From: Nemertoderma westbladi
Taxonomy: Eukaryota > Animalia > Xenacoelomorpha
Reading direction: 5' to 3'
DNA: 36,153 bases
Assembly (NCBI GenBank): GCA_032718475.1
Contig: JAUCBJ010002011.1
Location: 1 to 36,153 of the forward strand
Shown here: positions 8,081-35,716 of the stretch, piece by piece
How positions within the stretch are numbered: the stretch's first letter is position 1
Layout of the letters: each line of letters starts with the position of its first letter
The notes under the pieces: model-generated
The model's database searches: none
Told to the model about the DNA's origin: nothing
Seen by the model: the letters and a program-made list of their open reading frames with translations, nothing else
Translations under genes and position numbers: made by a program

Positions 8081-8321
8081 AGGGCAAGAGTACCGGTCGA
8101 CCGGTAACTAGTAGGCCTAACTACCTAACCACCCGAACCGGTACTTACTGCAGTACAGGTACTAGTATTATTTCGATTGTGATATTGTATACCGGTAGGC
8201 TGTTTAAGAGATTAGGGACTGTACACCCCTTGTTTCTTTTGGAGCTTACTTATTTCTGTCAGTTTTATTTACTTGTAGGTTAATATTGAGCAGAAGACGT
8301 GTAAGCCTGCCCAGATTATAC

Positions 8322-9847: not shown

Positions 9848-10095
9848 TACCGGTATTTACGATAGGCTTATTATATTTATTTCTATAAATTTAGGCTGAA
9901 ATTATACCGGTATTCTGTAATTAATTCTAGTCCATAATTATACTTATATATACTATAAGTGTAAGCTGTATACCGGTATTCACGATATGCCTATTATATA
10001 TTTATATATATTTGTACTGAAATTATATACCGGTATTCTGTGACAAATCTAGTCTGTAATAATACTTATATATATACTATAAGCATACCGGTATT
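9848..10095 (+). repeat. About 122-bp AT-rich tandem duplication with ATACCGGTAT palindromes just before gag
   Basis: Units begin ATACCGGTATT(T/C)ACGATA near 9848 and 9970; five ATACCGGTAT copies in the interval. Confidence 0.85.
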
Positions 10096-10231
10096 CTAAT
10101 ATATTGTATATATATCACGTTACATAGAGTGACGATATCGGTAATTAATTACTAGGCTAACAGTTAATACTGAATTACTAGACTTGCTTTAACTGTAATA
10201 CAGCAGTAGGCATCCAACTGTATAAACAAAC

Positions 10232-13200
10232 ATGTCTGACACAAAGCAAAACCTGTCAGACAGTCTCTTAGATACAACCATCTGTGACCCAGATAGGAGT
10301 GTGGAACGTGTGAGACCGAAGTTCAACTCACCTCCTACTGTAAGAAAAATCATCCCTCCAGTAGTAGTATCAGACACTAGGCTAGTCCAACACCGTAGGT
10401 CTATCATAGGCACTCGAGCTCAAGTCAAGCGAGACCAAGAAGCAGCGGAACAGCAGCAACACTCGAGCCGAGAACTTATTTCTCAGCGGCCCGACAGCTC
10501 CAGTAGTGCGGATACTATAGAGCTGACACCCGAGCGCGGAGTTAAGATGGCAGATGCGGTTTATTCGGATCCCCTTCTCATCCTTCCTGCAGCCGTACTC
10601 ACTAGAGTATTGATTGCTGTGGAGGAACACCAGATTGATTGGGCGAGAAGTAAGCGATCGACCAAGGATAGTTATGCGGGATACACAAGGGAAGAACTGA
10701 AGTCTATTGTCGAGTCGCAATGGAACTTCCCCGGACCCAGACTCCCGTTTGACTTATCGGAAGCTGCCTGGGAAGACATACACAGGATGGGAGTGACAAA
10801 GGAAACCAGCGATCCAGCTGTATGGAAGAGGTCAGCAGCCGGATACGTACAGGGATTCTTCAGCTCTATGGAGCGATTAGAGGAACAATTGTTTCGACAA
10901 CCACAAGGACCTCAAGAGCAGGGAGAGCTGCTTTATCAAGTTAGAGAAAGAATTCTAAGATTCAGACTAATCTTATCTGCCTTTGAGGAGGCTTCGAAAA
11001 GAAGACAAGACACGTCGTTGCAAGTTGCCGTAAAGACTTGGTTACAGCGGGTGAGTCTCCAAGTTCAAAGAACTGCCCCGTGGAAATCTCAGTTGGATGA
11101 GTGCTCAACCCACGGAGAATCAACAGACGCTACCTTTTCCCAAGTGGAAAGCGAAGCGACAGCAGAGAAACCGCATAAGAGGGATGCTATTGACATCTAT
11201 CTGTCAGACTATCAACGATTTGTAGGTGACGAAGAGTTGAGGAGACGGCTGGATGGACTTAGCCCCAATAGTGAAGGAGCCAAGCTTGTGTTGGACGCAA
11301 TCGATGTGGATATGTTAGCTGCGAACCAAGCTAAATTCAATGAAAGCATCCGCATTACTAAGGTTCAAGAGGAACAAGTAAGGAAAAAACGTATAGAAGA
11401 CAGAAAGACAGCAGCAGCGGCAGCGGCAGAAGCAGAAGCGGAAAGAAAGGCAGCAGAAGTGGAAAAGAAAGCGGCAATGGCAGCAGCAGAAGCGGAAAGA
11501 AAGGCAGCAGAAGTGGAAAAGAAAGCGGCAATGGCAGCGGCAGAAGCGGAAAGAAAAGCGGCCGAAGCGGAAAGAAAGGCGGCCGAAGTGGAAAGAAAGG
11601 CGGCAATGGCATCGGCAGAAGCAGAAAGAAAAGCGGCAGTGGCAGAAGCAGAACGGAGGGCATCTGAAGAGACAACCCAGCTAGAGTTGGAAAATCTTCA
11701 AGAGAGGCAGGACAACTTCAATAAACAGTTAACAGCTAGTCAAATGCAGATGATGAGTCGATCTACTCCCAAACGACAGGGATTTACATCATCTGATGAA
11801 GGCGATGCCACAGATCTTGAAGGCGGAGGAAATAGATCTCGTCTAAGTAGGCGTAGAAGAATGTCCCACCGTCAGAAATTGCCTGATTTGCCCCCAGCTG
11901 TTAGAAAGCAACTAACTAACCCAGACTTAGGTAGTACAGAACCCACAGACCAAATAATTAAAATAGAAAGACTCCCTACTATAGTAGATGAGCCTGAAAT
12001 AATTAGGCCTGTTCTCGATGCCACCCCTTCGGTGATAGAGACACCTGTACTCCCAGAACTTACCTCTAAATTCCCTCTGCACAGCACTAAGCTACCTGTG
12101 CCCCACAGAACCATCCCTGAAAATGTTCATGTCCTGGACTCCGAGCGAAATATTAATGATTTGTCGCCCGTTGTCCCTCGTCCGCCCGCTACAACGTTGG
12201 CGGCTCCCGCTTCGGCGGTCGAGTGGGTGGATGAGAGACGACGGGGGATGGATCTCCTGCTCGGGCAGATGCAGGAGACTGTTCAGCAATTCAAGGGCAC
12301 AGTAAGGGAAAGTAGGTTAGAGTTGCAAGAAGTGCAGCAAAGTATCGCGTTAGAACGCGATAAATTAGTAAATACCCAAAGAGGTATACCACCACCCCCG
12401 GTAACAATGTGTCAACCTGTTAGGTCTGAAGTATCTCATGCGCAAGGTGTAGAGCCTACACGCATCTATACTGCTAGTGAAGTGGAAACTCCTATAGTAA
12501 ACCCTATTAAGGGTAATTATAAACCTGTTGACAATGATATTCCCTATAGACCTGATCATAATCCGAGAAATTTATATACCGATAACTCGATATTAAATAA
12601 CACGATGGCCCAAGAAAGTTTTACGCGTCAAATGGCTAGAACCGAAGCCCGTCAAGCGGTAAAGGTGGGAGAGATAGTCAAGTTCAATGGAGATGAGATG
12701 AAATGGTTACCTTTTAATGAATATTACAAAGATAACATACAGAACTCTGTGCTATCTAACGGAGAGAAACTTAGATTCCTCATCGAGTGCTTGGAAGGAT
12801 CTCCCAAGTTAATGGCGTTAAAGTTTATTGGACATCCAGATGGATTAAGACAAGTTTGGGATACCCTAAACATCAGGTATGGTAATAGGAATAACATAGC
12901 TAAGTATTTGTATGCAAAATTGGTAGCACCCCGAAAATTCATTAGCAGCAGGATTATAGAGTTTTCCGATGAGATTCAGGAGATCTGTAGACAATTAGAT
13001 TGGCTAGGTAAGTCTCATGAATATCAGAGTTCTATGGTTATTGGAGCCGTGGCCTCTACTTTACCAAGGGTGGAGTAGGTACACGCTGGGATAAGAAAGT
13101 GTTATATATGATGGAACAACAACGACGAGACCCTACCATGGCTGATCTCATGTCATTCTTGGATGGAGAAGTGAAATTACAACTCCTAAAGCAGTCGAGA

Positions 13201-16200
13201 GAGAAGACACCGGAAAACAAGGTAAGTGAGAAACCCGTTTCTAGGAGAAAGGAAACACCAGTGTGTTATACCGACGACGGCGAAAGCCAGGCTTCTCAAG
13301 GAGAGGACAGCAGGAAAGACACTGAAAGATCTTATTATGTCAACAAAACGCCTAAAGATGTAAGTAAATTCAAGTCTCGAACCAATGACAGGAGAGAACA
13401 GGTAAGAAAAACTCCTCCTACGTCTCCTAAGATAATTCAGTTAAGAAAGCCCGAAGAAGTGTGCACAACGTTACTCAAAATAAGGTAAGTAACATCAAAC
13501 CGAAATGCGCACTGTGTGACGGGCCCCACCGTTTGAATGTGTGCGATGAATTCCTAAAGAAATCATTAAAGGATAGACGGGAAGTCATGTGGGATAAGCG
13601 GTTGTGTTATAATTGCCTCAGACAAGGACACCAATGGCGAACCTGTTACTCCGACGCAAGGTGTGCAAAGTGCGGTGCGAAACATCATATCTTGTTGCAC
13701 ACTGAATTCGAGCGAAACAGCCCGAGTCAGGTAAGTGAGTCCGAACTACATGTCCAATTCAGTGATGTGAACGACACTGACCAAAGTTCTGAGATGGAAG
13801 GATTCTATACGGACGAATTCTCCGACGAAGACGAATCCTGTTACATGATAAATACCTCAGTGTATCGAGCACTTACGTATGAAAAGGACACCGACAGCGA
13901 GCTCACCCTAACTACTTCTGACCGACAACCATCTTGGAAAGCACCAACTTCCAATGTAGGAATCCGAGAATTTCCTGTAGTACAGTTAAGGGTCCACGGA
14001 CCTACAAGGAGTTATATAGTGAACGCCCTCCTTGACTCCGGTAGCACAGGAACATTCATCGACAAAGAACTAGCCGAAGACATCTTTGCTGGACAACCCA
14101 AGTTCCGAACTAAGCTAAACATGTCAGGAATTATGCAGGTTTGGAAATCTACAGTAATAGCGGATTATTATGTAGGTGCGTTGTCCACCCCCCAGGATGA
14201 ACTAGGAGAACACAGCATAAGGTCAGTAAAAATGGTAGCGATAAAGAACTTCGCTACCAGCCAAGTAGAACCTTATAACTGGGATGAGGACAATTTCACC
14301 CAGCAGCTTGATATACCTAGATTCAACACCGATTACCCTGGAGTGCAAATACTCATCGGTCAAAATGAGCATGAGGCGCTCGAGACATTGGAGAAACGGC
14401 CTGCTCAACCGCAACCACTACAAGCCTATGCGGGAAGAACTAGAGTGGGTTGGTACTTTACTGGCCCTTCCCGTAGAACTCTCATGGAAAGATTACCAAA
14501 AGATCAGGTATATCAAGTAAGAGAATGGGAAGTTGAGAGCAGTGAGTTAGACGATCCAACTGAGGGAACACCATACTCCTCAGATAACGACGATATCCAC
14601 CAACTCTTCGACGAGGAGAATACCATTGATCACCTTACGGAAAACGAGACTTGGCAAAACCAAGTGAACCTATGTCAGCTCATTCGTCCATCAGAACGAG
14701 TCGACTATAACGACGAACTGAATGACGTCATTGAACGTTATAATGCAAAAACTCGGGATGAACATGCCGTACGATTCTTTACTCAAGTGGCTGTAGAGCC
14801 CAATTCCTACAATAAGGCCCTATCGGTAGAAGAAGAAAGAGCCAAGCAGATCCAAGAGACAACTACACGTTTTCTTAAAGATCAAGGTAGATATGAAATC
14901 GGTCTACCTTTCCGAAAGCGAGAACCAAAGTTCATAAACAACAGACCCTTGGCCGAGAAAAGAATTGCTCAACTACATGGACGTCTTACGGCAAATTCTT
15001 CAGCTAAAGAAATGTATCAGACGCAGTTGAAGAAATTTATTAACAAAGGATATGCGGAGCGAGTACCGGAAGGAACACCTATAACTGAGAGAACGTATTA
15101 TTTAACACATCATTACGTTCCCAAACCCGGTAAACCTCATGAGGTACGAGTAGTGTTTGACGGCTCCGCCCTTTACATGGGCCAATCCCTTAATTCCGAG
15201 TTGTTACCAGGACCCAACTTACTCCAATCCTTGTTGGGAATACTCTTAAGATTACGACAATATTAAATCGCTTTCGCCTCCGATATAGAAGGCATGTTCT
15301 TACAAGTCAAGGCGCTGGATAGGGATCGAGATAGCCTATGATTTCTGTGGTGGCCTGAAGGAGACCTCAACCAGAAACCGGTGGAATATTGGATGACCAT
15401 CCAGGCTTTTGGGATAATCTCGAACCCTTCAAACGCCTGTTCAGTGGTGCGCACCACTGCTGATGACAACCGGGAAGCCTTCTCTAAAGAGGTGATCGAC
15501 AACATCAAACGGGATATATACATGGACGACAATTTAAAGTCCCTTCCATCAGTCGAAGAAGCCATTAATGTCGCCAAAGGAATGGTAGAGTGCTTAAAAA
15601 GAGGTGGATTTCGCCGTGAGTTTCTGGAATCGATCCCGGTAGAAGATCGAGGAGCGAAAGACCTAGACCTAATCAAAGATGATCTTCCAGAAACCAAGAC
15701 ACTTGGTTTGAAATGGGACACAGAGAGAGATATCCTGTTTTTCCAGCTAAAACAGCGAGATAATCCAGTTCGAACTAAACGGATTTGTTTAAGTATCCTG
15801 AGCACTTATTTCGATCCATTGGGATTTATTAGCCCAGTTATATTGATTGCTCGGAGTTTAGTACAACAAATGTGGCTTGAAAACCACTCATGGGACGATC
15901 CACTCAAGGGAGAATTATTAAAGAAGTGGATGAAATGGGAAGATTCTCTACCAGCCATCGAGAACTTTATAATTTCCCGTTCATATTTTGGTCATGTTCT
16001 CCCTACGTATTCCTATCAACTCCATGTGTTTGGAGACGCCAGCGATATGGGAATAGGTATAGTAGCCTACCTGAGAGTTGAAACTCCGGATGGAATCAAG
16101 GTCGCCTTGGTTACCTCTAAGGCGTTGATAAACAACAAGTTGAAGGTTCCTCGAGCGGAGTTAAAGGCGGCTCCATACGCTACAGCCATCGGCCGGAATG

Positions 16201-18380
16201 TAACAGAACAGATCGACTATCCATTGGAGAAAACTGTATATTGGACCGATGCCTTACTCGTGTTGGAGTATATAACCAATGAAGTCTGTCAGTTCAGCAT
16301 CTTCGTTACCAACAGAGTAGCCATTATACTTAGTCGCACGAAGATGGATCAATGGAGACATTGCCCCGGAACGATTAATCCAGCAAACATCGCCTCCAGG
16401 GGAGCAACTCCACAAGAACTGATAGATACTCCAGACTGGTTAGGTGGACCCGACTTCCTCTACAAAGGAGAAGAAGAATGGCCTCCTCATCTTACTACGG
16501 CAGAGATTAGACAGGCCAAAGGAGCGGAGAAAGTCAAACCTAAAACTCAGGCGAGTAAATCGAATTTATTTAAACCCGCGGTAGATCTGTCTGTACTACA
16601 CACTTCCGGAGACGACGCTTTGGTTCCGAAACCCACAGCCACAAACAAGTCTGTTGTGGAAATCAGAGAGAAGGATTGGAAATCTGGAATACCAGACGTC
16701 TCGCAAGGACTCTCACCTCTCCTGCAGAGAGCGATATATCATTACAGTTCCTTGAATCGGCTCTGTAAAGCCGTTACATATTTAAGGCGATGTTTTCATC
16801 ATCACTACTCCAGGGCGAAGACCAATAGTGATACTGCTCCACTGACATCTGTGCAGGTCCATGTTGTTAAAGATCTTCCCAAATATAAGATATCCGACAG
16901 GTTTCTGAAGGAGAAGATCAGTTATCAGGAGCATGAAGAAACCAACAAGCAGATGCTGAGACTCCTGCAATGCTATGAGGATTCCGATAACTATTTCCTG
17001 TTGTTGAGAAATCCACAGATGCGCTTAAGGGATCGTTTCTCTAGCACAATGATAGATGGGTTGATATGTGTTGGAGGAAGATTAATGAATGCTCCATTAT
17101 CCTTTGACACTAAGTTTCCCATACTCATTAGAAATCTTGAGATACAAGTCAAGATGATTGTGGATGTTCACAGCAAACTTTATCATGCTGGTAGAGAACG
17201 AGTTCTTAGCGAAATTCGAACTCGCTATTATTTTTATAAACCCCGTAGAGCTCTGAACCAAGTTCTTAGGAACTCCATACCCTGTAGGAAAGTATTCAGT
17301 AGGCCTTTAACACAGCGAGAGGCAGAATTACCTAGGGAACGAGTAAGCTTCTATGAACTACCCTTTACTAATACCGGTGTAGATTTATTTGGCCCTATTG
17401 AAGTGTATCGTGCTAGGACTATAGTCAAGAGATGGTGTATCATCTTTGTTTGTATGACTTGTAGAGCTATCCATCTCGATATGGTGAACGATTTATCTAC
17501 CAACAGCTTCCTATTAAGCTTACGACGACAGATCGCTCGCTTTGGAACTAGTAACACGATGAGGTCTGATAAGGGAACGAACTTCATTGGTGCCAACAAT
17601 GAAATCAAAGCTTATGTCAAAGATTGGAACCAAAGACAGGTGGACGATCAGCTAAGGGTAACAGCGTCTAGCTGGACCTTCAACGCCGCCGACGCCCCTT
17701 GGTGGGGAGGAAGTTGGGAGAGATTAATCAGGAGCGTGAAGACCGCATTTCACTTTATAGTGCCGTGCCGCGCGTATCTCACTGACAAACTTTTGCGGAT
17801 GTTAATGGAGGAAATCACCGCCTATCTCAACGAGAGACCGCTTATGCCAGTCTCATCGAGTCCCGATTCCCTGGAAGCGCTAACACCCGCGCACTTCCTA
17901 CTGAAGAAACCTGTAGCCATGCTCCCACAATCGGAAATCACAGACGGAGACGAATACTGCCGGCAAACTTGGCAACTTATGCAGTTGTTATCCCGTCGTT
18001 TTGCTGACCATTTCGAAAAACATTATCTGCCCATGCTACAACTTCAAACTAAGTGGTTTGCGCAGCAAGAAAACGTCGGCGCTGGAGACATGGTCCTTAT
18101 TGTGGATTCAGATCTTCCACGTAAGCGGTGGCAGACAGGTCGTATCATCGAGACTCACATCTCGGATGACGGTTTGGTGCGATCGGTAGAACTCGTCGTC
18201 ATGCGACGTAACTTCAAGAAACCGGGAATTGTCTTCGAGACACAGCAGCTCAATCGCCCAGTTGGTCGTTTATGTTTACTGGAAAGAGACAGAGAACTCT
18301 CCGGAAACTATGGAAGACAAGATACTCTTCCCACGACCACCTCCCTAATCCAACAAACATCTAGGGACTCCCCAGCTTAG
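10232..18380 (+). pseudogene. gag-pol: BEL/Pao gag-pol polyprotein (about 2,700 codons) disrupted by two frameshifts and two nonsense codons
   Basis: DUF1759-like gag core KFNGD..KW..F..EKLRFL..RYG (about 12675-12885). Knuckles CALC..H..C, CYNC..GH..C, CAKC..HH.LLH (about 13506-13700). Protease LLDSGS (DSG 14034-14042). RT YMDD 15519-15530. RNase H LHVFGDAS, PRAEL, YWTDA, NPANIASRG. Integrase GVDLFGP, SDKGTNF, GGSWERLI. Frameshifts near 13065 and 13431-13488; stops at 15264 and 15339. Confidence 0.96.
11410..11660 (+). repeat. Coding tandem repeat in gag (18-aa/54-bp units built from AAEAERK-like heptads); predicted long helix or coiled coil
   Basis: AEAERKAAEVEKKAAMAA repeated; 54-nt period (11461 vs 11515). 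Confidence 0.9.
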
Positions 18381-18385
18381 CAGCG

Positions 18386-18399
18386 TCTGGAGTGGGTGT
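18386..18399 (+). promoter_or_regulatory. Second PPT-like motif directly after the pol stop
   Basis: TCTGGAGTGGG-TGT resembles the true PPT/LTR junctions TCTGGGAGCGG-TGT (1930) and TCTGAGAGCGG-TGT (24399). Confidence 0.45.
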
Positions 18400-18926
18400 G
18401 TGACCATATTATTTTATATTCTTATCATTTTATATTTATGTATATATTATTATGTAATTTTATTATAATCGTTTTCTTTCATTTTATTTAGTAGAATGTT
18501 ATTTTAGCGATTATTTAGTAGATTAGTGCAATATATATTCGCGTTTATTACTTAATTACTTATATATTATATATTTAGTGCGACGGCGAGAAATAATTCT
18601 TTTTCTCTTTCCTTACTGTCCGTATTACATTATAAATACGTAACTACAGTAAGATGAAATATCCGTACTTATTAAAGTATTCACTCCTACTATATTCAAG
18701 TATTATTGGTAAAGTAGAGTATTAGGAATGCAAAATTCAGATCCTCGTGTCTCGGCTAAACCAAGCTCTGGGTAGACCTTGGAAACGACTTGCCTCTTCT
18801 CACTGACATTGCTTCGTGCGATATTGCTCTCATACCGTATATTAAATAATACATATAGTAGCGTGATGTCCCTTTAACAGTAGCATAAAACGCAAAAATA
18901 AATCTGTTGAACCCTTTGACCATCTG

Positions 18927-19277
18927 TAATTCTAGTCGATTAAGATATCGCGGCACCCACCGATATACTTGAAAGACAAAATTCTAGAATCAATGGTTAA
19001 CGTCCCCAGACATGTTCTGGAATAAACCGGTGCCCATCTTAAATATTAATTATTAATATTTATAAAATCTGTCAAATAGATACAATAGAGTAACTACTTA
19101 CAAGTTAACTCTAGAAAATCTATAAATTAAAGTCTGTCAAATTCAGATCCTTTAAAATTCTAGTCTATTAAGATATCGTAGCACTTACCGATATTCTTAA
19201 AAAGATCAATTTCCTAGAATCAAGGATCCCAGTCCCCAGATATGTTCTGGAATAAAATTGTGTCTATTTAATATTAA
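18927..19277 (+). repeat. Diverged direct repeat (about 122 bp, about 228 bp apart) in the spacer between pol and the accessory ORF
   Basis: AATTCTAGTC.ATTAAGATATCG...GTCCCCAGA.ATGTTCTGGAATAAA at about 18928 and 19156. Confidence 0.85.
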
Positions 19278-19887
19278 ATAATAAAATTTACGGGAATAAA
19301 TTTAAATTCATATTTTAATGAATTTAATAAATTGTCATTTTTATACAATTTATAACATTCCCAAAATTCCTTTAATTAATAGATCATGGGAGCGGAGATT
19401 CACCCTATTAAGTGTATTAGTGTGCGAGAATCTCCAATATATAGTCAATAGCCGATAAAATTCATAAAATCATGTATAAAGAGGATATTGACAATTAAAG
19501 AATTACTATTAAATAGCATCCCAGATCTGTATGCATGAGAATTACCCTAATTCTACCGCTAGCTTTCCATAATGTCACCATGGCAACAACCACGCTAGAA
19601 TTAGAAGTGAGTTAAAAAAACAATAGAAAGCTTGCCCCATTGAATAGCATAGGGAATAAATAGCACACTGCTAGTATCCAAGGATACATAATAATAACGT
19701 GACATTCTGGAAGGCACTTGACTAACGGACAAATGGCCCGAATGTGTATAATTTGTGACAGTTGTGTGGAATTTGTGCGTTTATAGGTGAATGTTACTAC
19801 TAAGGTGTGTTTACAGTAGCGAGTCGCAATTGTGAAAGTAGCCCTAACACTGCAGCAAGAACCTGAAGTAAATCTAAGCCTTTGGGA

Positions 19888-20033
19888 CGGACAGTGGTGT
19901 GACTTGTGCCGGTTATCGTTGTCGTTGTGTAGCTACATCGTTGGCGAAAGCAGAGCGACGATGGTACATCGGCGCTGAGGATCTTACACTGTCCGGGGGC
20001 AGAGAGGGGTAGGCAGCGACGCCCGCTAGCCTA
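19888..20033 (+). ncRNA. Conserved cis RNA structure upstream of the accessory ORF, copy 2
   Basis: 19906-19930 pairs with 19950-19975 (24 of 25 pairs). CGGACAGTG 19888-19896 pairs with CACTGTCCG 19987-19995. Hairpin at 20010-20033. Substitutions relative to copy 1 mostly preserve pairing. Confidence 0.72.
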
Positions 20034-20076
20034 AAATATAAACTCATTATAATATTGATAAACTCATATAGCAGAT

Positions 20077-23000
20077 ATGACTGAGTTGATAGAAGATGAT
20101 CTTGGTATCAGGGAGCGATATACTCTACCTTTACAAGCGTTTGTCGATAGCTTGATACGCGGCGACGCTGGTCCAACTACTACGGAGGACGATGGTCGTT
20201 ATATCGAACCGCCAATGTCCCAGGAGCAACTTACGCGTGAATTGGATTATAGAAAGTTCACCGCTCGCTACACGCATCGTAATGGTACGTATATGGACTT
20301 CTTAACTACTGGCCATCCTATCGATTTACATGACACGGACGATGTAGACACCGAAAGGGAAATGGTTTTATTTAAATATCATACCCAGCGGAGTCGGCAC
20401 GATCAACCGAGAATAGAACATGAGAATTCTATTCGAAACAGACTCGAAAGGGAAGACGTTGAAGAGCTGGATAAACGCAGCGACTTCAACGATTATCTGG
20501 AATTCCTGAGAGAGACATATCTCAATATTGCCAGCCAACAAAATCTAGAAACTCGATATCCTCAAGGTATACATCATGACCCTATGATAGAACTCAAACG
20601 ACTCTATTTCACTATGATGTATCTTACCGCCGATCGACCCCTACTTGTCGTCCCAGATAGCTTCGAACAGATGGAGGAATATTGTAAAAGTGGAGAACGA
20701 TCACCCACGTTTCCCCTGCAGGACGTGCGTCTTTGGTATTACTGCGACGAATGCCCTAGACCCAATCAGCAAACGGAAAGACATAAACATCTGTGGAGAC
20801 TTTGCGCTAAACACAGTTTTACACGATATACTTATGGGAGTTTCGAGCGAAACCTGTTCGACGTATCACCTACGATCGCTCGACTCAAACGATCCTTGAA
20901 TAAACCAATGATCAGAGTTCCGGAATACTCGGTCAGACCTCCTCATTCCTCTGTTAGACCTCAGACTCTAGATCCTAACAGTATCACGGATCCTCCCGAA
21001 CTGTACTCACTGTTCAAAGATCTAGTGTTACCCGAACAGTTGATCGGTGGCACTCCGGTAGTGGGCTCACTAGATATTCGCCAACCCTACCTAGCCGGAT
21101 TAGGATGCGGTCATCTAATATCGCCGTTTAACCCATACAACCGTCCCGGCTTAACCCCGATACAACCCATTACTGAAGTCGAAGAGAGCGTTGTACGAAA
21201 CGCGTTAGACGCTATTCGGCAGAAAATCAGAAAAGGAACTTACGATTGTTTAGAGAAACATAAATTGCAGCAACAAGTCCAAGCGGTAAAAGAATTAGCT
21301 TTACCTCAGTTCAATAGAGAAATCCAGGATCTCGAGGAAGACATCGAACGTGGACGCACCTACTCTTTACAAGAGTTCCTAGACGAGCGTTTACAACAGC
21401 AAGCGGAGGAAAATCAGCACGAGGAGAGACATATAGAAATGGATGAGAGAGAAGAAGCAGCTTTAGCCCAGCCAGAAGCTCAAATTCTTCTAACGGATCT
21501 CTATTCTAAAACCATCATCCATCCTTCGATGGTTCCCCATTTTGGAGACAAACTCTTCGCCACGGCACAGCCTCAACCGGTTGATATCAACCTAAGATCT
21601 CGAGATCTTATCGCTGACACTCCCATGTTGCAACGTCCGCCAATCGAGGCCGCTTGTGTCGATGGTATACTCGTTGAACCTCCGGACAATAGAGCGGATC
21701 TTGTCCGTCGTATGGTACACGATGTTAACATACGCACTAGACCTTTACCGAACTCGTTTTATGGGATCAAAGATCACCCTTATTACGTCAATCTAACGCA
21801 ATATTACATGGTAAAACCGGAAGATCCTACACATAGTCTGAGGTTTCTACCACTAATAAATCCTCTCGATCTTGTCGAACTCGAACAACTGCAGAAACAT
21901 CTGGATCAGTTAGTTAAAGTAAACTCATTTCGAAAACCCTATAATGTTTCCAGAATAGAGAAAGAGACAATACCTCCGTATAATCTTGATGGATTCATCA
22001 AAACTCGATTAGTACACTGGAATCTTGACGTGTTATTCGAGGAGGAAAGAATACAACGATATGGAGATGTAGAAACATATACTACACAATATTTAAAGTA
22101 TAGAGATTTACCTAATGCTAGCGAATGCGCTACCTTGTGGCATCCAGTGGGAATGACTCTAGAAAACGCCACTAAAGAGTGGAATGAGACTCTTAACGTT
22201 ATCGAGATGTATGGAGTTGTCACTTACGATAACGAAGGTAGCGTTCCGGTTGGAGAACTGGGAACTACGCGAATGATACATATATGAGGACTAGCTGGTT
22301 CTAGCCACGTATTTACTCGAGCGTGTTCCGATGTGATTGATTATTCTTTTGAGACCCTTACCGAGATACAAAAGAAACTCCGACATGGACAATTCGAACT
22401 CGTGCAGCGTTACGTCACCGACACCGAGCGCAAACCGGCCATGGGTATCGATGGATCGATGTTACCCCAGCCCGTGCTCGAGATGTTGTTTAATTAAAGA
22501 ATCCTTAAAATCGGCTCAGCTGTTTATGGAGATCTACAAAACGACTTTCGGAACATGGAGAACATTCCATACCCTTTCGTCGATACTCAGCTGATTGCTC
22601 CCTGGGCAGAAGGCCGAGGTTTCTTCCGCACTATGTATGCCAATACACCCAGCGGCATTACTAAAGTACAACGAACCTCCATCGGACATCTTGCCTTTCA
22701 AGAATACGGATGGAATTTCAAGGTTGGAAATCCTATCAATTACCAACAAGTATATGGAGATCATTATTCTCGTTTATACTTTGACGGACCATTGACCGCA
22801 CCTGGCGCCGTGTATAGCTTTATGAGTGTTCCACTTCGTCCCTCCTTAGCTATATACATGATCTTTGAAAAAGCCGCACTTGCCGGTTGGCTAGCGGATG
22901 TGTGCAGTCGTACCATACGCGCCCATCCCTTAATACTTGTAACCAAACTCGCCAAGCTAGATGAACACAATAAATTCATCCGCTTCGAATGTTTCAGGCG

Positions 23001-24332
23001 CTTTCTGACTCCGTTCCGTAACGTTGATAGTCAGTTCAAGGACCGCGCTCTGACCTAACTCAGCCTAAGAGACTCAGCTGCGGAGAAGTTAAACAGCGCG
23101 GGATTCGCCCTTTTCAAGGACGTTTGTATACAGAACTTACATTCATCTGTTATACAAAGACCTCGAATACCCACGGGTTATTCTGTCGTGGAAGTTCAGA
23201 CAGTGGGTTCGCTTGCGGAGACAGCCGCACCTATCTCAGCTATGCAATTGGAGGACGAACCAATATGCTTAGAATCTGAGGAGATTCAGCCTACCGCGCC
23301 CCGGAGCAGCGATAACGACTACGTCTTGGAATGGTATCAAGGTCCACAATGTCTCACCGCATACGATTATCTGCACGCCAACTATATTTCTCGAAAACGT
23401 TGCCGATTATGCGCATCGAGAGATCATTTCACCCCTATGGACTCAGACGTACCCTGCTCCTATTTCCACGAACAACCGATGATGGAGATCTATTGTGCGT
23501 ATTGCAGACTTAATAACTCACACATTTTTGCAGTCTGCCCACAATTTATGACTCAATGCCATCACTGTCAACTTAAAGGACATGCCAGTTTTAATTGCCC
23601 TTTTAACCGCGATTTAGAAAGCGTAGGTGAGATGATTACCCTGCGCTACATCCGAGCTTGGGAAGCGAACATGGATTTACATTGTGAGTCCCACCATCGC
23701 TATTACCCTGGACGCGCTTACGAAGGAGTTTACGCGTTCCATCCTTATCGATTCGCGTCTGTTGAACAAAAAACACGCACCCCTAGTTACGAACTAATGA
23801 AGCGTGTTGGTGAGTGCATTTCCACCAAATTTGTTCGCAAATATCTCAGGAACGTCAATCCTAACGATATTAGCTCATACCATTTGATTAATTTCATCCG
23901 TCAAGACCCTGAGTATGGCGATTTATTTATCAACTCGCACCCTGAGTTACAGGAAGTATCTCGACGGCCCTACGAATATCGAGCCCGAGAAAGCGAGCTG
24001 GAAAGAACCATTAAACCGAGGAAGTTTCTCACCACTCACGGTCCACCTACCGCTATTGTCCAGACGACTCGTCAGGGACCAGTAGGAGCTGCTGTCCTAA
24101 GACGCGCCCTAAAGGCCGTTAGACCTCGCTCTACTGAAGTTGATATCGATCAACCAGTTACCTCGACCGGCGGATACACCGATCGTAATCCTAAACCTTC
24201 TGATGCAATTGTATTGCACCCTTCACCCAGGAGTTACAGCCCTCCTAGTAAAGTGGCTCGCCCCAAAGAGAAAAGGACTCTTGAAAAGGACTCAAAAAAC
24301 TGCGTAAACGCCGTCCGCGTAAGAAAGACTAA
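20077..24332 (+). pseudogene. Accessory ORF, about 1,417 aa when repaired: unknown N-terminal region, DEDDy-type 3'-5' exonuclease, three CCHC zinc knuckles, basic C-terminal tail
   Basis: Track ORFs 20077, 22555 and 23188 share one frame, with only three stops between them (TGA 22285, TAA 22495, TAA 23056). ExoI VVTYDNEG (22216-22239), LPQPVLEMLFN.RILKIGSAVYGD (ExoII D 22531), PFVDTQ, SIGHLAFQEYGWNFK, PLRPSLAIYMIFE (ExoIII-like 22855-22869). Knuckles at 23401-23600. A +2 indel near 24284-24293 masks the KKLRKRRPRKKD-stop seen in copy 1. Confidence 0.85.
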
Positions 24333-24401
24333 CTGTTTAGAGTATTTTTATATTTTAGAAACTGTGATTTTTATATTTTATAGAATTAAATCCCATTTTC
24401 T

Positions 24402-24409
24402 GAGAGCGG
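24402..24409 (+). promoter_or_regulatory. Polypurine tract before the 3' LTR
   Basis: GAGAGCGG abuts TGT at 24410; GGGAGCGG sits at the same place in copy 1. Confidence 0.75.
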
Positions 24410-25277
24410 TGTAAAAGCTTTTGCGGAATTAGCCGGTTATTTTCCCTGCAAAGTTCTCTGTAGGTGTTTTAACGGACATCAAAAGCCGTTTCCTTACTGT
24501 ACTGGTGTTTTAGTGGACATAAAAAGCCATTTCTTCTGTATGTGTAGTTTAGCAGACATAACTAGCAATTCTATGTCGCAATACGCTAAAATCCTCTTGA
24601 AACAGTGTAGTTACTATGACGACAGCTAACAGCTGATCTGTACACGTGTAGCTTTTCCTTTGTTCTCTGTCGTTTCTTTGTTCGGTCAACCAATCAGAGC
24701 GATTCTCCTGCTTTTTGTACAGAAACCTCCGGGAAATCGCGCAATGCATTATGGGTTAATGTTTACCTTTTTTCCTGATGCCAGAAGACCGGCTTTGGAA
24801 TATCTGTGTTTTCAGGCTTTAGCCCAACATTAGTAGGCTTGATCATCAAAACGTATATCTGTTATCCTACTCAAACTAATCAATGCAAATCATATTGTCA
24901 ACTACAAACACCGCATTTTTACTGCTATTTACTGTCGGTCATTAATTATCGGTTGATGGAATATTATTATATTTGGATAATATCGATCAATAATCAGAAA
25001 CCCCAATCTTCTTGATATACTGAAGGTTAGAGAGACCGGTTACATATAACAATTGCGACTTACATTAAAGTGGTTTTAGAGTGAATCTAATGCTATTTCA
25101 TAGGCACTACATGAGTCGGTTGCTGTTCTCTTTATATGTGACTAAAATTAGTGAAGGTCGGCAGATCAGTGTGCAGTATTGTGCGGTAGTGTGCATGATT
25201 GTGACTGATAACAAAGCATCTCCTAAAGAATGCGCTTTATACGTGAATCCATAGCCATCCCGTTGTGTCTAGTATAA
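24410..25277 (+). repeat. 3' LTR, first 868 bp (rest displaced by an insertion)
   Basis: Matches 6736-7603 with about 5 substitutions and no indels by eye; homology stops abruptly after TAGTATAA. Confidence 0.96.
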
Positions 25278-26013
25278 CCCAGTGAAAAGTGCGCAAGCGA
25301 ATCGCAAGTGATATTCATGCGCCATGCGTTATTCTTGCGGAAAAATTATTAGTGATAAAACTCCTGCGATACACTTGCGAATCACATTCGTTTTATCTCA
25401 TGCGAAAAAACGCATTGGAATCACTTATTAAAGAAATTTGTGAAATCAACACTTATGAATTTCTTGAGATTTATCACTCATTTGTCACCTTATGCTGTTA
25501 TGCCTTTTGCGGGCATATTTGAATTTGAATTTTTGGCGCTACAACCCTACAACTGTACTGGCTGACTTACTGCTGTACCGGTACGTACTGAATATCCGAA
25601 TGCAGGAATGTATTCATTCAGTACATTGCAGTTGCAGTACTGTTGTTTTGTAACTACCGGTATCATAGTTGTAGCAAGTAGTGACAGTGAAGTGTGAACT
25701 GCCTATGGACTGACGGAGTCACTCACAACTGCAGCAGTAGGCAGGTAGGCCTGCTTCAGTCAGGCAGTTTGCTTTGATGGTCAAGCTAGCACTAGCTGTC
25801 TACTGGTCTATAGCCTATCTGCTATCTGCAGTAGGCTGACTCTGACTGGGACTGGCCGTGTCTTGTGCTGCGTCCTACGTCTAGGTCTACCGGTACCGGC
25901 AGACCGGTACTACCTGACTACTGCCAGACTGCTGTACTCCTGTACTGTTACTGTATGCTGGTAGCAGTCTGCCGGTACCGGTCAGCAGGCAGCAGGTGCA
26001 GGCGCAACTTTTC

Positions 26014-26505
26014 CGGTCCTACGACAGTACGAATTACCCAAAAATACCCCAAAACACCCCAAAACACCCCAAAATACTCCAAAAGACCCCAAAATAGTAT
26101 AAAACTACCCCAAAATACCCCAAAATAGTTTAGGCCTATAATTACTCCAAAATACCCCAAAATAGTTTAGAATTACCCCAAAATACTTTTTTTTGAGCCT
26201 TTGTTTTGGAAATTCAATTTACCCCAAAATATGGCAAAATGACGAATTACCCCAAAATAATGATGAATTACCCCAAAATAATTAAAAAATTTTTCTTCAC
26301 TCTCGTTTATTGTTTTGGTTCAAAAAACTTGCCACTGTAACCTGCTCCTTTCCCTCGCTGTTAAAAAACATTGTTAGCTTATTTTGGGGTATTTTGGGGT
26401 AATTTTTTAGCCTTTTTGGGGTATTTCAGTATTTTGGGGTAATTTTTGACTATTTTGGGGTACCGGTATTTTGGAGTATTTTGGGGTAATTCGTAGGTAG
26501 GACCC
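26014..26505. mobile_element. Mutator/Foldback-like MITE (492 bp) with 9-bp TSD
   Basis: CAACTTTTC at 26005-26013 and 26506-26514. Termini (C)GGTCCTAC...GTAGGACC(C). TACCCCAAAA arrays in opposite orientation on the two arms. Confidence 0.88.
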
Positions 26506-30219: not shown

Positions 30220-31666
30220 TAGGGCTCAACAGAAGCTTCGGCTTCGGTTCGGTTCGGGCCGAAGTTTGGCAATTTCGGTTCGGTTCGGCTTCTGCAATTG
30301 ATACTGCAGAAGCCAGGAGCAAACTTTGCTAATTATTCCAAGTATTACATTGACTGATTGAGCTAAGACCAGAAGACAGTAAGACTAATCAATCTGTCCA
30401 TCGTTGTACTAATTAATTTTGGGGTGTAAACGTTAAGCAGACACTGGTGCAGAGCAGACAGTAGGTACAGACAGTGGTGCAGACAGTGATGCAGACAGTG
30501 GTGCAGACACCTGGCAGCCTGGTGCAGACAGTGGTGCAGTCGGGCAGACACTGGTGCAGAGCAGACAGTGGTGCAGACATTTGTGCAGGTTTTGGTACAG
30601 ACAGTGGTGCAGACACTGGTGCAGACAGTGGTGCAGACACTGGTGCAGACAGTGGTACAGACAGTGGTGCAGACAGTGGTGCAGACACTGGTGCAGACAG
30701 TGGTGTAGACAGTGGTGCAGACACTGGTGCAGACAGTGGTGCAGACACTGGTGCAGACACTGGTGCAGACAGTCTGTCAGTGGTGCAGGCAGTGGTGCAG
30801 GCAGTGGTGCAGACACTGGTGCAGACACTGGTGCAGACAGTAAAGGGGCGAGCAGGTTAGTAAAGGAGCAGTTTAGTAAAGGAGCAGGTTTCAGAGGAGT
30901 ATTGGGGGAACCAAAACAATAAACGTTATTGTTTTGCAGGCTAAGAATACCCAAGGGCCAAGAATACTCGCAGGCTAAGAATACTCGCGGGCTAAGAATT
31001 CCTGAGACCTTACTGTAGTTAGTCTGCACTGTCTGCACCACTGTCTGACTGTCTGCACCAGTGTCTGCACCACTGCCTTCACCACTGTCTGCATCACTGT
31101 CTGCACCAGTGTCTGCACCACTGTCTGCACCAGTGTCTGCACCACTATCTGCACCAGTGTCTGCACCACTTTCTGCACCAGTTTGCACCACTGTCTGCAC
31201 CAGTGTCTGCACCACTGTCTGCACCTGCACCAGTGTCTGCACCAGTCTGCCAGTGTCTGAACCACTGTCTGCACGCTGCACCACTGTCTGCATCACGGTC
31301 TGCACCACTGTCTGCACCTGTGTCTGCACCACTGTCTGCTTAACGTTTACACGAACTTCCATTTAAATGGCATTATTTTTTTAATTGTTTTCAGTTTACT
31401 TGGGTAGTTTCATTTGTCATTTTATTTTGTAGTACTTATTTTTTTAATTAATCATAGCTTTCTTGCTAAGTCCATAGACCAAATAGGTACCAGTCTGCCA
31501 CTGCCAGCAGGCCAGTCAGCCAGTATAGTGACGTAAATACGAATTTATGACCATAACTTGCTAACTTTCTGAACTTCGGTTCGGATTCGGTTCGGTTCGG
31601 CCCGAAGTTGGCCCTGCTTCGGTTCGGTTCGGTTCGGCACCATAAAGTGCCTTCTGTTGAACCCTA
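30220..31666. mobile_element. Non-autonomous hAT element (1447 bp) with 8-bp TSD
   Basis: TIRs TAGGG(C/T)TCAACAGAAG. GATGGTAC at 30212-30219 and 31667-31674. (TTCGG)n subterminal repeats at both ends. Confidence 0.92.
30424..31352. repeat. Foldback structure: two inverted arrays of a 12-bp unit (GCAGACA(G/C)TGGT) around a spacer of about 180 bp
   Basis: GTGTAAACGTTAAGCAGACA 30424-30443 is inverted at 31333-31352; arms about 30424-30842 and 31021-31352. Confidence 0.92.
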
Positions 31667-32123
31667 GATGGTACTGATACATAACATGGCAACCTGATGA
31701 TCCCCTATTGGCTATTTACCTATATCTCTTTCTCCTGATTGGTTATATGATCAGATGCCGTCAGATCAGATCAGATCAGATAAGGACAGACGTTTTATTC
31801 TACCTCCTATTAAAATCCCGTAATCGATTTGATTTTTGTTTTAAAAAGGGATACCGGTAGGGTGAAATTGTTGTGAAAAGTTGAAATTTCAACTCAGTTG
31901 AAAGTAGAACTTCTCCCCGACTGTCTGTTGAGCCCTAGTACAGTCAGACAGTAGTACCGACTGACTGACTGACCGGGACCGGTCACTTCAGTCATTGGTC
32001 ATTCACACTGTACCGGTAGTACGGTAGGCGCCTACTATAATATTGTAATAAAAAAAATAATGCAGTAGGCCTAATACAATATTATACGTACAGACGTAGG
32101 CCTATTCAATTTTAATAAAAAAA

Positions 32124-34154
32124 ATGGCATCCAAACGAAATTTGTATAGACTAAACAGACAACAACTATGTTCAGAATTGAATCAGGCGCTTGGTCTACC
32201 TGTAGGCAACAATTATGGCATCGAGATGGATGCTGAGTCAGGTTCTGAGTCTAACCCCGATCATTATGCTGCTTCTGTTATTGATCGGCCTCCAACTGTT
32301 GATCTTGATCAAAATGATGATATCTCACTTCCTGATGACATCATTGTGGACGATGGAACAAGTTCGCATACCGTCACTGATCTCAATCGTAATGACAATA
32401 ATGAGCAAGTGTATGACACCGATCCAGATGAAGACACATCCGACAGCTCTATAGATTCCTTTTCTTTTTCCCCGATTCCAACATCAAAATGCCACGAAAA
32501 CAAACATGTTTGTTGTAAACTGCTCCAGTGGTCGTCCAATAACAGTTCAGTTAGTGACAGGGCATTTTCGACCTTGCTAAGTGAGTTGAATTCAGTTATT
32601 CCAAGTCTGCCATTAACTGCCAAAACATTGAGACACCAGCATATACAGCAATCACTTTTACCCATTGACAGCATTGATATTATTGCTTGTGCTGGTGGGT
32701 CCATGTCCTTTTTTGGTATTCCTCTGAAGTATCATAGTTCACCGATTATAATAAACATCGATGGAACTCCTTGGATTAAGTCGTCAAATGGTGCTTTTTG
32801 GCCTATCCTAGGAGGTGTTTATGGGAGGAAAGATGTAGGGACATTTATCGTTGCCTTATGGCTTGGTCCATTACAAAAGCCAACTAACATGAATGAGTAC
32901 CTTGATCCTTTTGTTAAGTATGTTATAAATAACTCTATAAATGTTATTTTTCTAACTGTAGATACGCCTGCTCGAAGTATGTTGTTGTGTACTAAGGGTC
33001 ACTCTGGATATTGGCCATGTACATACTGTAAAATAAAAGGCATTCATGATGGTACAAAGGTGTACTTTTGTGACAGACATGCACCACCACGAAGCGATAT
33101 TGAATACTTGCAGATGACTGACCCTGGCCATCAAAAACAACTCTGTCCCCTTCGAGCAATTGTAGGTTTGTCGTCAGGACTGCCACCGGAGTATATGCAT
33201 TCTGTTTGCATGGGTGTAACAAAACAACTTATAGCTGCATGGACTTCATACGATTCAATATGCAATCGGACAATGCCCTTGCCCTGCGTTCTTATCCCTT
33301 CTAGAAAAGCCTCCCTTAATGTACTATTGAAGTCATTTGGTATGCACATGCCTCTTATATTCAACCGTCCAGTGCGAGGTTTTGATGAGGTGTCACACTT
33401 CAAGGCGACAGAATTTCGATCTATTCTATTGTATGCGTCCCCGCTTTTAAAGGAATATCTTCCTACTTCTTATTTTAATAACCTAATGAAACTTCACTTG
33501 GCTATTCGTATTTTAGTATCTGAAATGTTGGTATCACAAATACGATTCTTAAATATTGCTAAGAAATTGATTAACGAGTTCCATGATGAAATTGATGGCC
33601 TTTATTCTCATTCAGTATACACCTTCAATGTCCATTTATTGACACATCTTCCTGATTTTTGCTCTATGTATGGTGCACTGGATAAATGGAGTGCTTTCCA
33701 ATTCGAATCGTTCATGGCTGTACTCAAGAAACGGTTGCGATCGAAACGATTAGATTTAATTCACAAGGAGGCAATAAGTGGAGTTTTATTTGATACCTGT
33801 TCCACAATTTGTGCTGAAAAAACACTGAACCCTAAGGTTTTCTTGCCTAAAAAGGGGAACTGCATATTTATTGATGGTAGGTATATGTTGCTTTCTAAAG
33901 TTCAAACTTTCAGTACCAGTACCGGTACCAATCTCGTAGTCTCAGGTCACTCACTGACATTTGTTGATGACGTTTTTACTGTTGTTGCTGGTCAGGAGAT
34001 CTACAAAAGCCTTCCATTCGGGGAAGGCTTTTTCAAGAAGGGAGCAATTATTTCAAACTTGTCCGTAGATAGTTCCATCTTCAAGTGGTGCATCTGTTTT
34101 CCCCATTTGTTCAACAATGAGAATGTGTTTTATGTTACGATGTTTTGTAACTAA
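32124..34154 (+). CDS. EnSpm/CACTA (CMC superfamily) transposase, open 676-aa ORF
   Basis: LPLTAKTL, INIDGTPW.KSS...FWPILG, DTPARS.L..KGHSGY..C.YC, EYMHSVCMGV.K, FKATEFR..LLY, NVHLL.HL, YG.L...SAF.FES; no stops or frameshifts. Confidence 0.93.
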   Translation: MASKRNLYRLNRQQLCSELNQALGLPVGNNYGIEMDAESGSESNPDHYAASVIDRPPTVDLDQNDDISLPDDIIVDDGTSSHTVTDLNRNDNNEQVYDTDPDEDTSDSSIDSFSFSPIPTSKCHENKHVCCKLLQWSSNNSSVSDRAFSTLLSELNSVIPSLPLTAKTLRHQHIQQSLLPIDSIDIIACAGGSMSFFGIPLKYHSSPIIINIDGTPWIKSSNGAFWPILGGVYGRKDVGTFIVALWLGPLQKPTNMNEYLDPFVKYVINNSINVIFLTVDTPARSMLLCTKGHSGYWPCTYCKIKGIHDGTKVYFCDRHAPPRSDIEYLQMTDPGHQKQLCPLRAIVGLSSGLPPEYMHSVCMGVTKQLIAAWTSYDSICNRTMPLPCVLIPSRKASLNVLLKSFGMHMPLIFNRPVRGFDEVSHFKATEFRSILLYASPLLKEYLPTSYFNNLMKLHLAIRILVSEMLVSQIRFLNIAKKLINEFHDEIDGLYSHSVYTFNVHLLTHLPDFCSMYGALDKWSAFQFESFMAVLKKRLRSKRLDLIHKEAISGVLFDTCSTICAEKTLNPKVFLPKKGNCIFIDGRYMLLSKVQTFSTSTGTNLVVSGHSLTFVDDVFTVVAGQEIYKSLPFGEGFFKKGAIISNLSVDSSIFKWCICFPHLFNNENVFYVTMFCN

Positions 34155-34435
34155 ATTGTATTCCATGTATTACGCTACTTGTGAACTTTATATATTTACC
34201 ATTACTATATTGACTCTCTAATAATTCATAACAAACTTTGATTCTGTAATTATCAATCGTTAAGTTTCAAACTACAGTATATACTTTGTAGATAAAACTA
34301 TTTCACTTCTGTGAGCAGATGCTGTAAACTCAATTAGAAGATACCTACCTACAGACCTATTATATATCCCGTTAATTATCATCACTTTTTATTATAATTG
34401 TATATTTTGTTACCGATTTCTTGACCTCATAAGCA

Positions 34436-35716
34436 ATGAGTTACAACCGGGAATTGCACCCATATACCGATGTGATTGTTTATTGTCGTAAAGATGAGTC
34501 GTTCTTTGTTGCTAATATTGAGGCGGATGTAGACTTATCCGAAACGAATGGTGATCTCAGGGTTGGTGGCGGTTACTACGATGTCATCTATGATGGGAAA
34601 CAATATTCACAGTGCAGTATTCTAACGCATGGCTATACTGAAGAAGAAGACTTCATGGTTATTCTCGAGAAAGCTCGGTCAATGAAATTATGTGGAAAGT
34701 TTCGCTTCGAACAAATATTTAACGCAACACCGAGAGTTGTAGATAGAATGGGCGGGACTAGGAAGCGCCTAACGTTCAAGTCGTACAAATCGATAGGGCC
34801 AGCAATGGCATCTTCTGATGAAGATGGCTGTACGCGACAACCCAGCAAACGTCCTAATATTTTTAGAGATAGACAACTGCATTCTGGCACTACGGAAGTA
34901 GAGTTTATATCTCCACCAGTAGCCCCTCAAGCTCAAGCATTACCAGCACCTATAATAAACCATCATACCGCCTCCAAGACTACCGGTATTTCGGAGAAGT
35001 TAGCTAATGATAAAACAGGTGAAGATGAATCCATTTACAACTCTGTGTATTGTCGAAAAAATACCAGGGAATGTAGTGTGAAAGTCTTCAACAAAGATGA
35101 TAAGTTCGACATTAAGTCACTAACGGATCGAGAGCTCCTAGAATGTACTTACCATTTGCAGGAAAACAATAGAAAGAGTATTTTGTCGCTAGAAATCAAG
35201 GTGGGAATGTTCCTTTCCAACATGTCCAAATGGAAGAAAGAAATGCAGGCAACGATTAATGAACCCCAAGGAGAAAATTCTGATCTTCGTCCAGCCAATA
35301 CGATTGACGAATTGGTAGCTCTAGCTGAACATCCTAATGTAGTTTCGTATTTATCACTGCAAGGGGGTTGTAATTTTAGAAATGCACTTTGTCGACAATT
35401 TGAAGCGTTAATGTCAAGACAACTCGCAAAGAAAGTGAACATTTCAGGTCGATCATCGGCAAAGGCAAAGGAATATTGTGAGTCGAAGGTTTCTCTCTCA
35501 AAGATTGGTATTATAAAGATACTTGAGAAAGTGAACCGCAATAGAGAGGGTTTCTCTAATGCAGCTCTGGAGCGTCACGTTCGCAGTGTGCATCATACGT
35601 ATTGCGATATCCGGCGGTTTCAAGGAAACAAAGGTAAAAAGATTAATTTTTATATTATAAAATACATATCTTTTGTCTTACTTTACACCGCAACTTCTTT
35701 GTATTTTTTCAGATAA
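34436..35716 (+). CDS. Second EnSpm-associated ORF with DUF4806-like C-terminal domain; 3' end uncertain (possible intron from 35634)
   Basis: Coiled-coil segment followed by YLSLQGG.....L.R....LMS..LA..VN.SGR, in tandem downstream of the transposase. The last 27 or so codons are AT-rich and follow AAG|GTAAAA. Confidence 0.7.
   Translation: MSYNRELHPYTDVIVYCRKDESFFVANIEADVDLSETNGDLRVGGGYYDVIYDGKQYSQCSILTHGYTEEEDFMVILEKARSMKLCGKFRFEQIFNATPRVVDRMGGTRKRLTFKSYKSIGPAMASSDEDGCTRQPSKRPNIFRDRQLHSGTTEVEFISPPVAPQAQALPAPIINHHTASKTTGISEKLANDKTGEDESIYNSVYCRKNTRECSVKVFNKDDKFDIKSLTDRELLECTYHLQENNRKSILSLEIKVGMFLSNMSKWKKEMQATINEPQGENSDLRPANTIDELVALAEHPNVVSYLSLQGGCNFRNALCRQFEALMSRQLAKKVNISGRSSAKAKEYCESKVSLSKIGIIKILEKVNRNREGFSNAALERHVRSVHHTYCDIRRFQGNKGKKINFYIIKYISFVLLYTATSLYFFR

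Follow-up and report, generated by a model that had tools for sequence, protein, structure and literature searches.

What does a BEL/Pao retrotransposon carry when the open reading frame (ORF) that follows pol does not encode an envelope protein? The extra ORFs described for BEL/Pao elements are env-like (PMC3118150, PMC13524379; here and below, published work is cited from excerpts of its text). The question is raised by contig JAUCBJ010002011.1 of Nemertoderma westbladi, of which positions 1 to 36,153 of the forward strand are the whole stretch analyzed and are called the window. It contains a BEL/Pao element at 6736-25277 (18,542 bp in the window, and 18,853 bp with a whole 3' long terminal repeat, LTR) whose third ORF, ORF3, had been read in a first-pass annotation as a non-env ORF with a DEDDy 3'-5' exonuclease. 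Our analysis indicates that ORF3 is a selected cargo of this element and that the domain in question very probably has a DEDD fold, in a form that departs from the strict DEDDy signature. The features on which this argument turns are as follows.

20077-24332, forward strand: ORF3, about 1,417 codons, interrupted in the window copy by three stops and, near its end, a frameshift
22150-22900, forward strand: predicted DEDDy-like 3'-5' exonuclease domain, with D718 and E720 (ExoI), D819 (ExoII), DTQ at 836-838 and, as the likely ExoIII, Y927/E931
23401-23598, forward strand: three Cys/His zinc-knuckle-like motifs at codons 1109-1174, the last a canonical CX2CX4HX4C

The frame opening with the ATG at 20077 contains three stops, at codons 737, 807 and 994 (nt 22285, 22495 and 23056), as compared with 79 and 90 in the other two forward frames, and translation places all motif strings quoted in the first-pass annotation in this one frame. 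That annotation was right about three stops in a single frame but overlooked a fourth lesion, a frameshift near 24282-24290; position 24332 is the stop of the frameshifted tail. Since the shifted tail matches the tail of a diverged second copy in the window, the length of about 1,417 codons given earlier is right for the family. The highest Kyte-Doolittle hydropathy over any 19-residue window of ORF3 is 1.31, which gives no sign of a signal peptide or transmembrane segment and agrees with the first-pass annotation. A Pfam search found no fusogen family match in the window, and with hydropathy at or below 1.31 an env role of ORF3 was rejected.

Is ORF3 maintained in the family, or is it a passenger that decays? 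This can be read from four DNA sequencing runs belonging to three studies of one organism. These gave 35,139, 24,230, 11,487 and 482 contigs per run on 19500-25300, with all 30 bins covered, and the many divergent contigs indicate a large family; contig depth was rejected as a measure of copy number. In every one of the four runs, 99.5% or more of the depth at each ORF3 stop is free of that stop, and the three stops are thus private to the window copy. Among the 40 differences listed out of 1,411, the 33 that fall in ORF3 comprise 21 non-synonymous and 9 synonymous changes and 3 stops; they mostly set the window copy apart from the family and fit neutral decay of a single copy. Over 22690-22890, around ExoIII, the variant list is complete at a depth of at least 12% in three of the four runs. 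Of its 25 variants, 22 are synonymous changes at third positions, where 8.5 would be expected from the mutation types involved (p 3.6e-8, omega ~0.07). This excess of synonymous changes identifies ORF3 as a selected cargo of the element, with purifying selection acting on the 201 bp that were tested. The tested stretch comprises the ExoIII surroundings, with the ExoI and ExoII codons lying outside it, and none of codons 913, 917, 927 and 931 has a listed variant at the same depth threshold. The first-pass annotation had proposed that other copies be checked for selection, and over this stretch they do not evolve neutrally.

The placement of the domain among DEDD nucleases rests on ordered motifs and on profile comparisons. 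Along the whole of ORF3 the ExoI, ExoII and DTQ blocks each rank first and stand in the correct order; D718/E720, the D-x-E of ExoI, narrowly take first place among 1436 positions, and D819, the ExoII Asp, lies in a first-ranked block inside the profile matches. A joint test of ordered motifs, with spacing limits chosen after the sequence was seen, scored 27.3, whereas the highest of 100 shuffles reached 13.9. Custom profiles were built from DEDDy domains of bacteria and one giant virus. A 33-sequence DEDDy profile gave 10.2 bits on the domain, the first place among 1,182 window tiles and a score reached by 0 of 500 shuffles, and a WRN-like profile of 10 sequences gave 6.7 bits (again 0/500). 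Against NCBIfam the domain matched RNase D families and no others (E 0.005-0.027); in a pairwise comparison, E. coli RNase D could be aligned across ExoII and DTQ (E 3e-4). The order and spacing of ExoI, ExoII, DTQ and ExoIII are those of EXD2, WRN-exo, Nibbler/mut-7, RNase D, Rrp6, EXD1 and Egalitarian. Unlike these cellular DEDDy enzymes, ORF3 has family-specific insertions before ExoII and ExoIII, a probable Glu in ExoIII and scores below curated cut-offs, and no closer affinity to any one cellular subfamily was shown. A PHROG 1674 "exonuclease" match over the ExoI part (E 0.082) was too weak to count.

An exhaustive search of 1.84 billion representatives returned one match, P0001 (E 1.2e-4, 29% identity), a 648-residue protein on a single 9,449-bp ENA contig that is without the long N-terminal half of ORF3. 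Aligned pairwise, P0001 and the window domain give E 2e-12, and tandem knuckles are also common to the two proteins outside the query region (pairwise E 2e-5). The P0001 motifs are D62, E64, D130, DTQ and W-x2-PL-x3-Q-x2-Y229-x3-E233. The protein scores 16.7 bits on the 33-sequence DEDDy profile (0/500 shuffles as high) and has a sub-threshold PF01612 match (E 0.2, 11.9 bits as compared with 23.6 needed), and its knuckles match retroviral nucleocapsid and Air2. Word-index searches with P0001 found itself only and with the window domain found no match; as queries against metagenome and viral contigs, P0001, ORF3 and pol each returned no related loci.

A structural model of the P0001 domain was derived from the two-sequence alignment alone, with no known nuclease included, and shows strands alternating with helices at a predicted local distance difference test (pLDDT) of 50-70 over the first ~90 residues. 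DEDD-family chains fill the first 28 of the 43 Foldseek matches listed for this model, with EXD2 first; they include T. brucei RNase D, EXD1, Egalitarian, Rrp6, Nibbler and NrnC, and also 1vk0, which we take to be a DEDD-family chain. The best named viral structure matches of the model include several 3'-5' exonucleases. A comparison with VIA also ranks EXD2 first, with Z 7.3 and a root-mean-square deviation of 14.2 over 136 residues, and unrelated ribosomal proteins reach 6.1.

Which residues would form the active site depends on the ExoIII register. D718, E720 and D819 are clear in ORF3 and are kept in P0001. ExoIII has two candidate registers of equal spacing, Y913-x3-S917 and Y927-x3-E931, and the block scan of ORF3 did not pick this block out (the two registers rank 103 and 170 of 1428). 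The P0001 alignment pairs W-x2-PL-x3-Q-x2-Y-x3-E with Y927-x3-E931, including a common preceding insertion, which backs the earlier suggestion of a Glu for the usual Asp. We regard Y927/E931 as the likely register on sequence grounds, with Y913/S917 rather unlikely. The fourth acidic residue is likely to be Glu in both ORF3 and P0001, and it is reasonably probable that D718, E720, D819, Y927 and E931 form the active site, with Glu in place of the last Asp and two-metal binding kept. The canonical Y-x3-D is found in neither register, the last position being Glu or Ser. As the ExoIII Asp is absent either way, the domain is filed as a DEDDy-like variant and not as a strict member; the fold claimed at the outset is supported in this looser sense, whereas the strict ExoIII motif is lacking.

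A number of results weigh against this reading of ORF3. An RNase D-only profile and a Pol I-only profile did not separate the region (7/500 and 61/500 shuffles as high, respectively), and every profile score falls well short of the curated cut-offs, with coverage mainly of ExoII. The window domain has no Pfam, PDB-sequence or plasmid/phage match; the Pfam result includes PF01612 (DNA_pol_A_exo1), the family suggested for checking in the first-pass annotation, for which no match above the gathering score was found. A single-sequence model of the window domain is unfolded (pLDDT 31). The model that supplies the fold matches is that of the homolog, with a mean pLDDT of 45 and residues 97-225 under 50; its best Foldseek E is 1.0e-3 with template modeling (TM) scores of 0.3 or less, and the VIA Z of 7.3 lies inside the range that the tool calls common. 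Bacterial ExoIII profiles choose Y913/S917 in 6/6 block tests, and a joint alignment with bacterial sequences also places the window at this register, which would mean a lost catalytic Asp. Additionally, the ORF3 variants are non-independent events, and the complete selection test spans 201 of ~4,250 bp.

The remainder of ORF3 is less easily assigned. Its first 690 residues gave no match at useful significance in Pfam, PHROG or NCBIfam. The first-pass annotation missed the three Cys/His knuckles at codons 1109-1174, a region with a PF13917 match (E 0.0068). Zinc knuckles are single-stranded nucleic-acid binders. A DEDD exonuclease and a CCHC knuckle are also combined in Trypanosoma brucei RNase D (PDB 7C42, CCHC-type), which occupies Foldseek ranks 5-6; it is a cellular enzyme, and the architecture that it has in common with ORF3 may be convergent.

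What kind of element carries this protein? The following features, all within the window, define the host and a second copy of it.

6736-7914, forward strand: 5' LTR, 1,179 bp, TG...CA
7180-7191, forward strand: candidate self-primer in the LTR, a perfect complement of 7915-7926
7915-7926, forward strand: candidate primer-binding site directly 3' of the LTR, a 12-nt complement of the LTR in priming orientation
10232-18380, forward strand: gag-pol of BEL/Pao type (PF03564, E 5e-11; PF05380, E 1.3e-35; PF18701, E 3.8e-19)
18381-20076, forward strand: non-coding spacer between pol and ORF3, 1,696 bp, with an internal 135-bp duplication
24410-25277, forward strand: 3' LTR, cut off after 868 bp by unrelated DNA
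1-3171, forward strand: diverged second copy, consisting of the spacer end, the 5' third of ORF3, the ORF3 tail and a full 3' LTR (1941-3171)

Profiles for DUF1759, Peptidase_A17 and DUF5641 all score above the Pfam cut-off and, at the level of sequence, confirm the earlier assignment of the host as a BEL/Pao retrotransposon. Motif positions give the gag-pol order as Gag DUF1759, three Cys/His fingers, protease, reverse transcriptase with YMDD, RNase H and integrase; the window copy has two frameshifts and two in-frame stops in this region. The LTR length of 1,179 bp had been missed. The end of the 5' LTR was set by the LTR of the second copy, with similarity reaching 7914 and a CA end in both, and the direct LTRs differ by 5 mismatches over the 868 bp common to them (99.4% identical). 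The 2.3-kb leader (7915-10231) has tandem duplications at 8316-8905 (~290 bp) and 9847-10083, and in Gag 11411-11640 has tandem repeats of 21 and 33 nt that are Ala/Glu/Lys-rich and likely form a coiled coil.

The junction of 5' LTR and leader has a Tf1-like arrangement in that the candidate binding site is complementary to the LTR of the element itself and no TGG-type tRNA site is found after the 5' LTR within 7915-7940. A match of at least 12 nt was reached by 5/3000 LTR shuffles and by 0/2270 other leader positions. Self-priming is known in Tf1 and Tj1 (PMC4600332). Near 7970-8060 the LTR end and the binding site are found again as partial copies.

The second copy aligns with the main element in segments at 73-85% identity and includes the 3' 530 bp of the spacer. 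It matches ORF3 up to ~21448 and resumes at 24173, with the exonuclease and zinc knuckles deleted; over the N-terminal third the ratio of non-synonymous to synonymous substitution rates (dN/dS) between the two is 0.40 (448 common codons, with 7 stop-bearing codons set aside). In the first-pass annotation the second copy served as evidence for the nuclease being a family trait. That copy is without the nuclease part and was rejected as proof of its conservation, but family-level conservation is provided by the read data. Read contigs also contain joints at 21439-24168 and 20444-23250, the former agreeing with the second-copy deletion, so the nuclease has been lost from other copies through no fewer than two distinct internal deletions.

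Several other sequences share the window with these two copies. A 57-bp tandem array of ~11 copies lies just upstream of the 5' LTR (5685-6471), and the unrelated DNA that interrupts the 3' LTR (25278-26470) contains inverted arrays of a 10-bp unit (26032-26281 vs 26380-26462). Further downstream are a large palindrome with two inverted arrays of a 12-bp unit (30452-31363) and open frames of 684 and 427 codons (32100-34154 and 34433-35716). The first of these frames has a weak DUF4218 match (E 0.0034) and resembles a CACTA-type transposase. The region 3363-4456 resembles what we take to be the endonuclease-to-reverse-transcriptase linker of a non-LTR retrotransposon, for which Pfam gave no support. 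No Rfam match was found in the window.

What would such a protein do for the element? We tentatively propose, as a possibility that falls short of being probable, that ORF3 is a trans-acting, RNA-directed nuclease that blunts small-RNA silencing by the host. A separate message for ORF3, translated into a soluble protein, is likely in view of the spacer and of the statement that ORF3s tend to form spliced units of their own (PMC5408684). The nuclease is likely supplied in trans, because copies without the domain exist (the second copy and the joints at 21439-24168 and 20444-23250), and such copies would ride along on the supplied protein. In the weakest step of this proposal, which we infer, the knuckles would hold single-stranded RNA and the nuclease would trim or destroy antisense small RNAs or their precursors, so that the element RNA survives; in an alternative mode it would compete with host trimmers of the Nibbler/mut-7/EXD1 type. 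A direction toward RNA is suggested by the best matches, which are EXD2, RNase D, EXD1, Egalitarian, Rrp6 and Nibbler and not polymerase proofreading domains. Our reason for ranking counter-silencing first is that control by small RNAs confronts every LTR element, whereas most of them manage replication with no enzyme of this kind. It counts against this role that mut-7-like enzymes promote silencing in their own hosts. A further difficulty is that DEDDy ORF3s are described without a clear link to copy number (PMC5408684). Arenavirus ExoN provides a precedent for a nuclease in immune evasion (PMC7968707).

Other roles have to be weighed against counter-silencing. An enzyme of the replication cycle, packaged via its knuckles and trimming 3' ends of RNA or cDNA (for example, the self-primer back to the duplex edge), would fit the 12-nt complement of 7915-7926 and 7180-7191 in priming orientation with no tRNA-type site, the resemblance of the P0001 knuckles to retroviral nucleocapsid and Air2, and the ability of DEDDy enzymes to finish structured-RNA 3' ends (PMC5408684). 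We nevertheless consider it unlikely, as Tf1 self-priming is reported to require the RNase H of reverse transcriptase only (PMC4600332), ORF3 is separate from gag-pol with packaging not assured, the primer site is diverged in the second-copy LTR, and a transcript start at 7180 is an assumption. Quite unlikely is the more ambitious version in which this is a giant self-priming BEL/Pao element with its own exonuclease as a replication part that finishes the self-primer or proofreads, a counterpart of ExoN and the first of a nuclease-knuckle family including P0001. Proofreading of reverse transcription as such, which would permit a genome of ~18 kb in the manner of nidovirus ExoN, is very unlikely. 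The element, at ~18.5-18.9 kb, does exceed the usual BEL/Pao length of 4.2-10 kb (PMC3118150), and nidovirus ExoN accompanies genomes of at least 20 kb (PMC7968707). However, ORF3 and the spacer account for much of the additional length, published LTR elements reach 25-30 kb with no such domain mentioned in the excerpted text (PMC6431247), the fold matches are RNA-processing enzymes, and errors of host RNA polymerase would remain uncorrected.

The domain might also lack catalysis altogether. A pseudo-nuclease similar to Egalitarian or EXD1, with a fold that binds RNA and serves either to bring element RNA to the germ line or to decoy host trimmers, is suggested by the fourth acidic position, non-canonical as Glu or as Ser, by the presence of EXD1 and Egalitarian among the P0001-model fold matches, and by a plant incomplete-DEDDy exonuclease that was proposed, and is unconfirmed there, as a dominant-negative silencing suppressor (PMC8062710). 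We find this quite doubtful, since four acidic residues and the Tyr are common to ORF3 and P0001 at 28% overall identity, as catalysis predicts. By our analysis no result directly separates counter-silencing, end or primer processing, and an RNA-binding adaptor. A chance resemblance of motifs, or a captured host gene that drifts neutrally, is the least probable account and would be surprising: the lack of a curated profile match at cut-off, the pLDDT of 31 for the single-sequence model and a dN/dS of only 0.40 against the second copy in the N-terminal third would allow it, but it is opposed by the omega value around ExoIII, by an ordered-motif score above that of all 100 shuffles, and by a homolog in which the motif residues are the same and whose model has DEDD-family matches. 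Neutral drift of ORF3 is largely refuted.

How does ORF3 compare with known systems? DEDDy exonuclease ORF3s in the Gypsy-type LTR elements Juno and Vesta of bdelloid rotifers were published in 2017 with the same functional guesses (PMC5408684), and the novelty claimed in the first-pass annotation was to that extent overstated. DEDDy ORFs also occur in Athena/Terminon elements, and the motif in these rotifer ORFs is DEED (PMC5408684; also PMC6431247, PMC6338049). None of the protein searches made here returned the Juno, Vesta or Athena proteins. As in Juno, Vesta and Athena, the ORF3 described here stands alone after pol in the env position, is of DEDDy type without a membrane segment, has one acidic motif residue altered, and has a function that is predicted only (PMC5408684). 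Unlike the rotifer elements, the host is a BEL/Pao element and the change would be in the fourth acidic residue (DEDE); the DEED motif is not present in ORF3, where the third acidic residue is Asp (PMC5408684). ORF3 also differs from the rotifer ORFs in its ~1,417 codons, three knuckles and long N-terminal half without matches, and its family is abundant and under strong purifying selection on the tested stretch, unlike the low-copy rotifer cases (PMC5408684). The BEL/Pao element roo and mosquito elements with a Chuviridae-like glycoprotein have the same gag-pol type and the same slot for an extra ORF (PMC3118150, PMC13524379). Unlike these env-type elements, ORF3 lacks a signal peptide and a membrane anchor and resembles no fusogen, and the element is about twice the usual length. 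DEDD exonucleases are also present in the mobile elements Dada (DEDDy; PMC3706591) and KolobokD (DEDDh; PMC9587614), but these are cut-and-paste DNA transposons with a proposed action on DNA ends. Full-text literature searches showed no exonuclease ORF in a BEL/Pao element, a scope that leaves aside Repbase Reports, subscription journals and supplements; the supplements of PMC3118150 (7,861 element sequences and a length table) could contain such elements, which limits this negative.

New here are the occurrence in a BEL/Pao element, an ORF3 protein of this size and layout, the probable DEDE site, the evident purifying selection over the tested stretch and the combination with a self-priming signature. 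If the active site is indeed DEDE, it would be an uncommon form among DEDD enzymes. The range of nuclease cargo in the env slot now takes in BEL/Pao, an LTR lineage separate from the Gypsy-type elements, which suggests that retrotransposons have captured RNA-trimming enzymes more than once. With an abundant family, selected over the tested stretch, and a naturally intact distant homolog, the role of a retrotransposon exonuclease consequently becomes testable.

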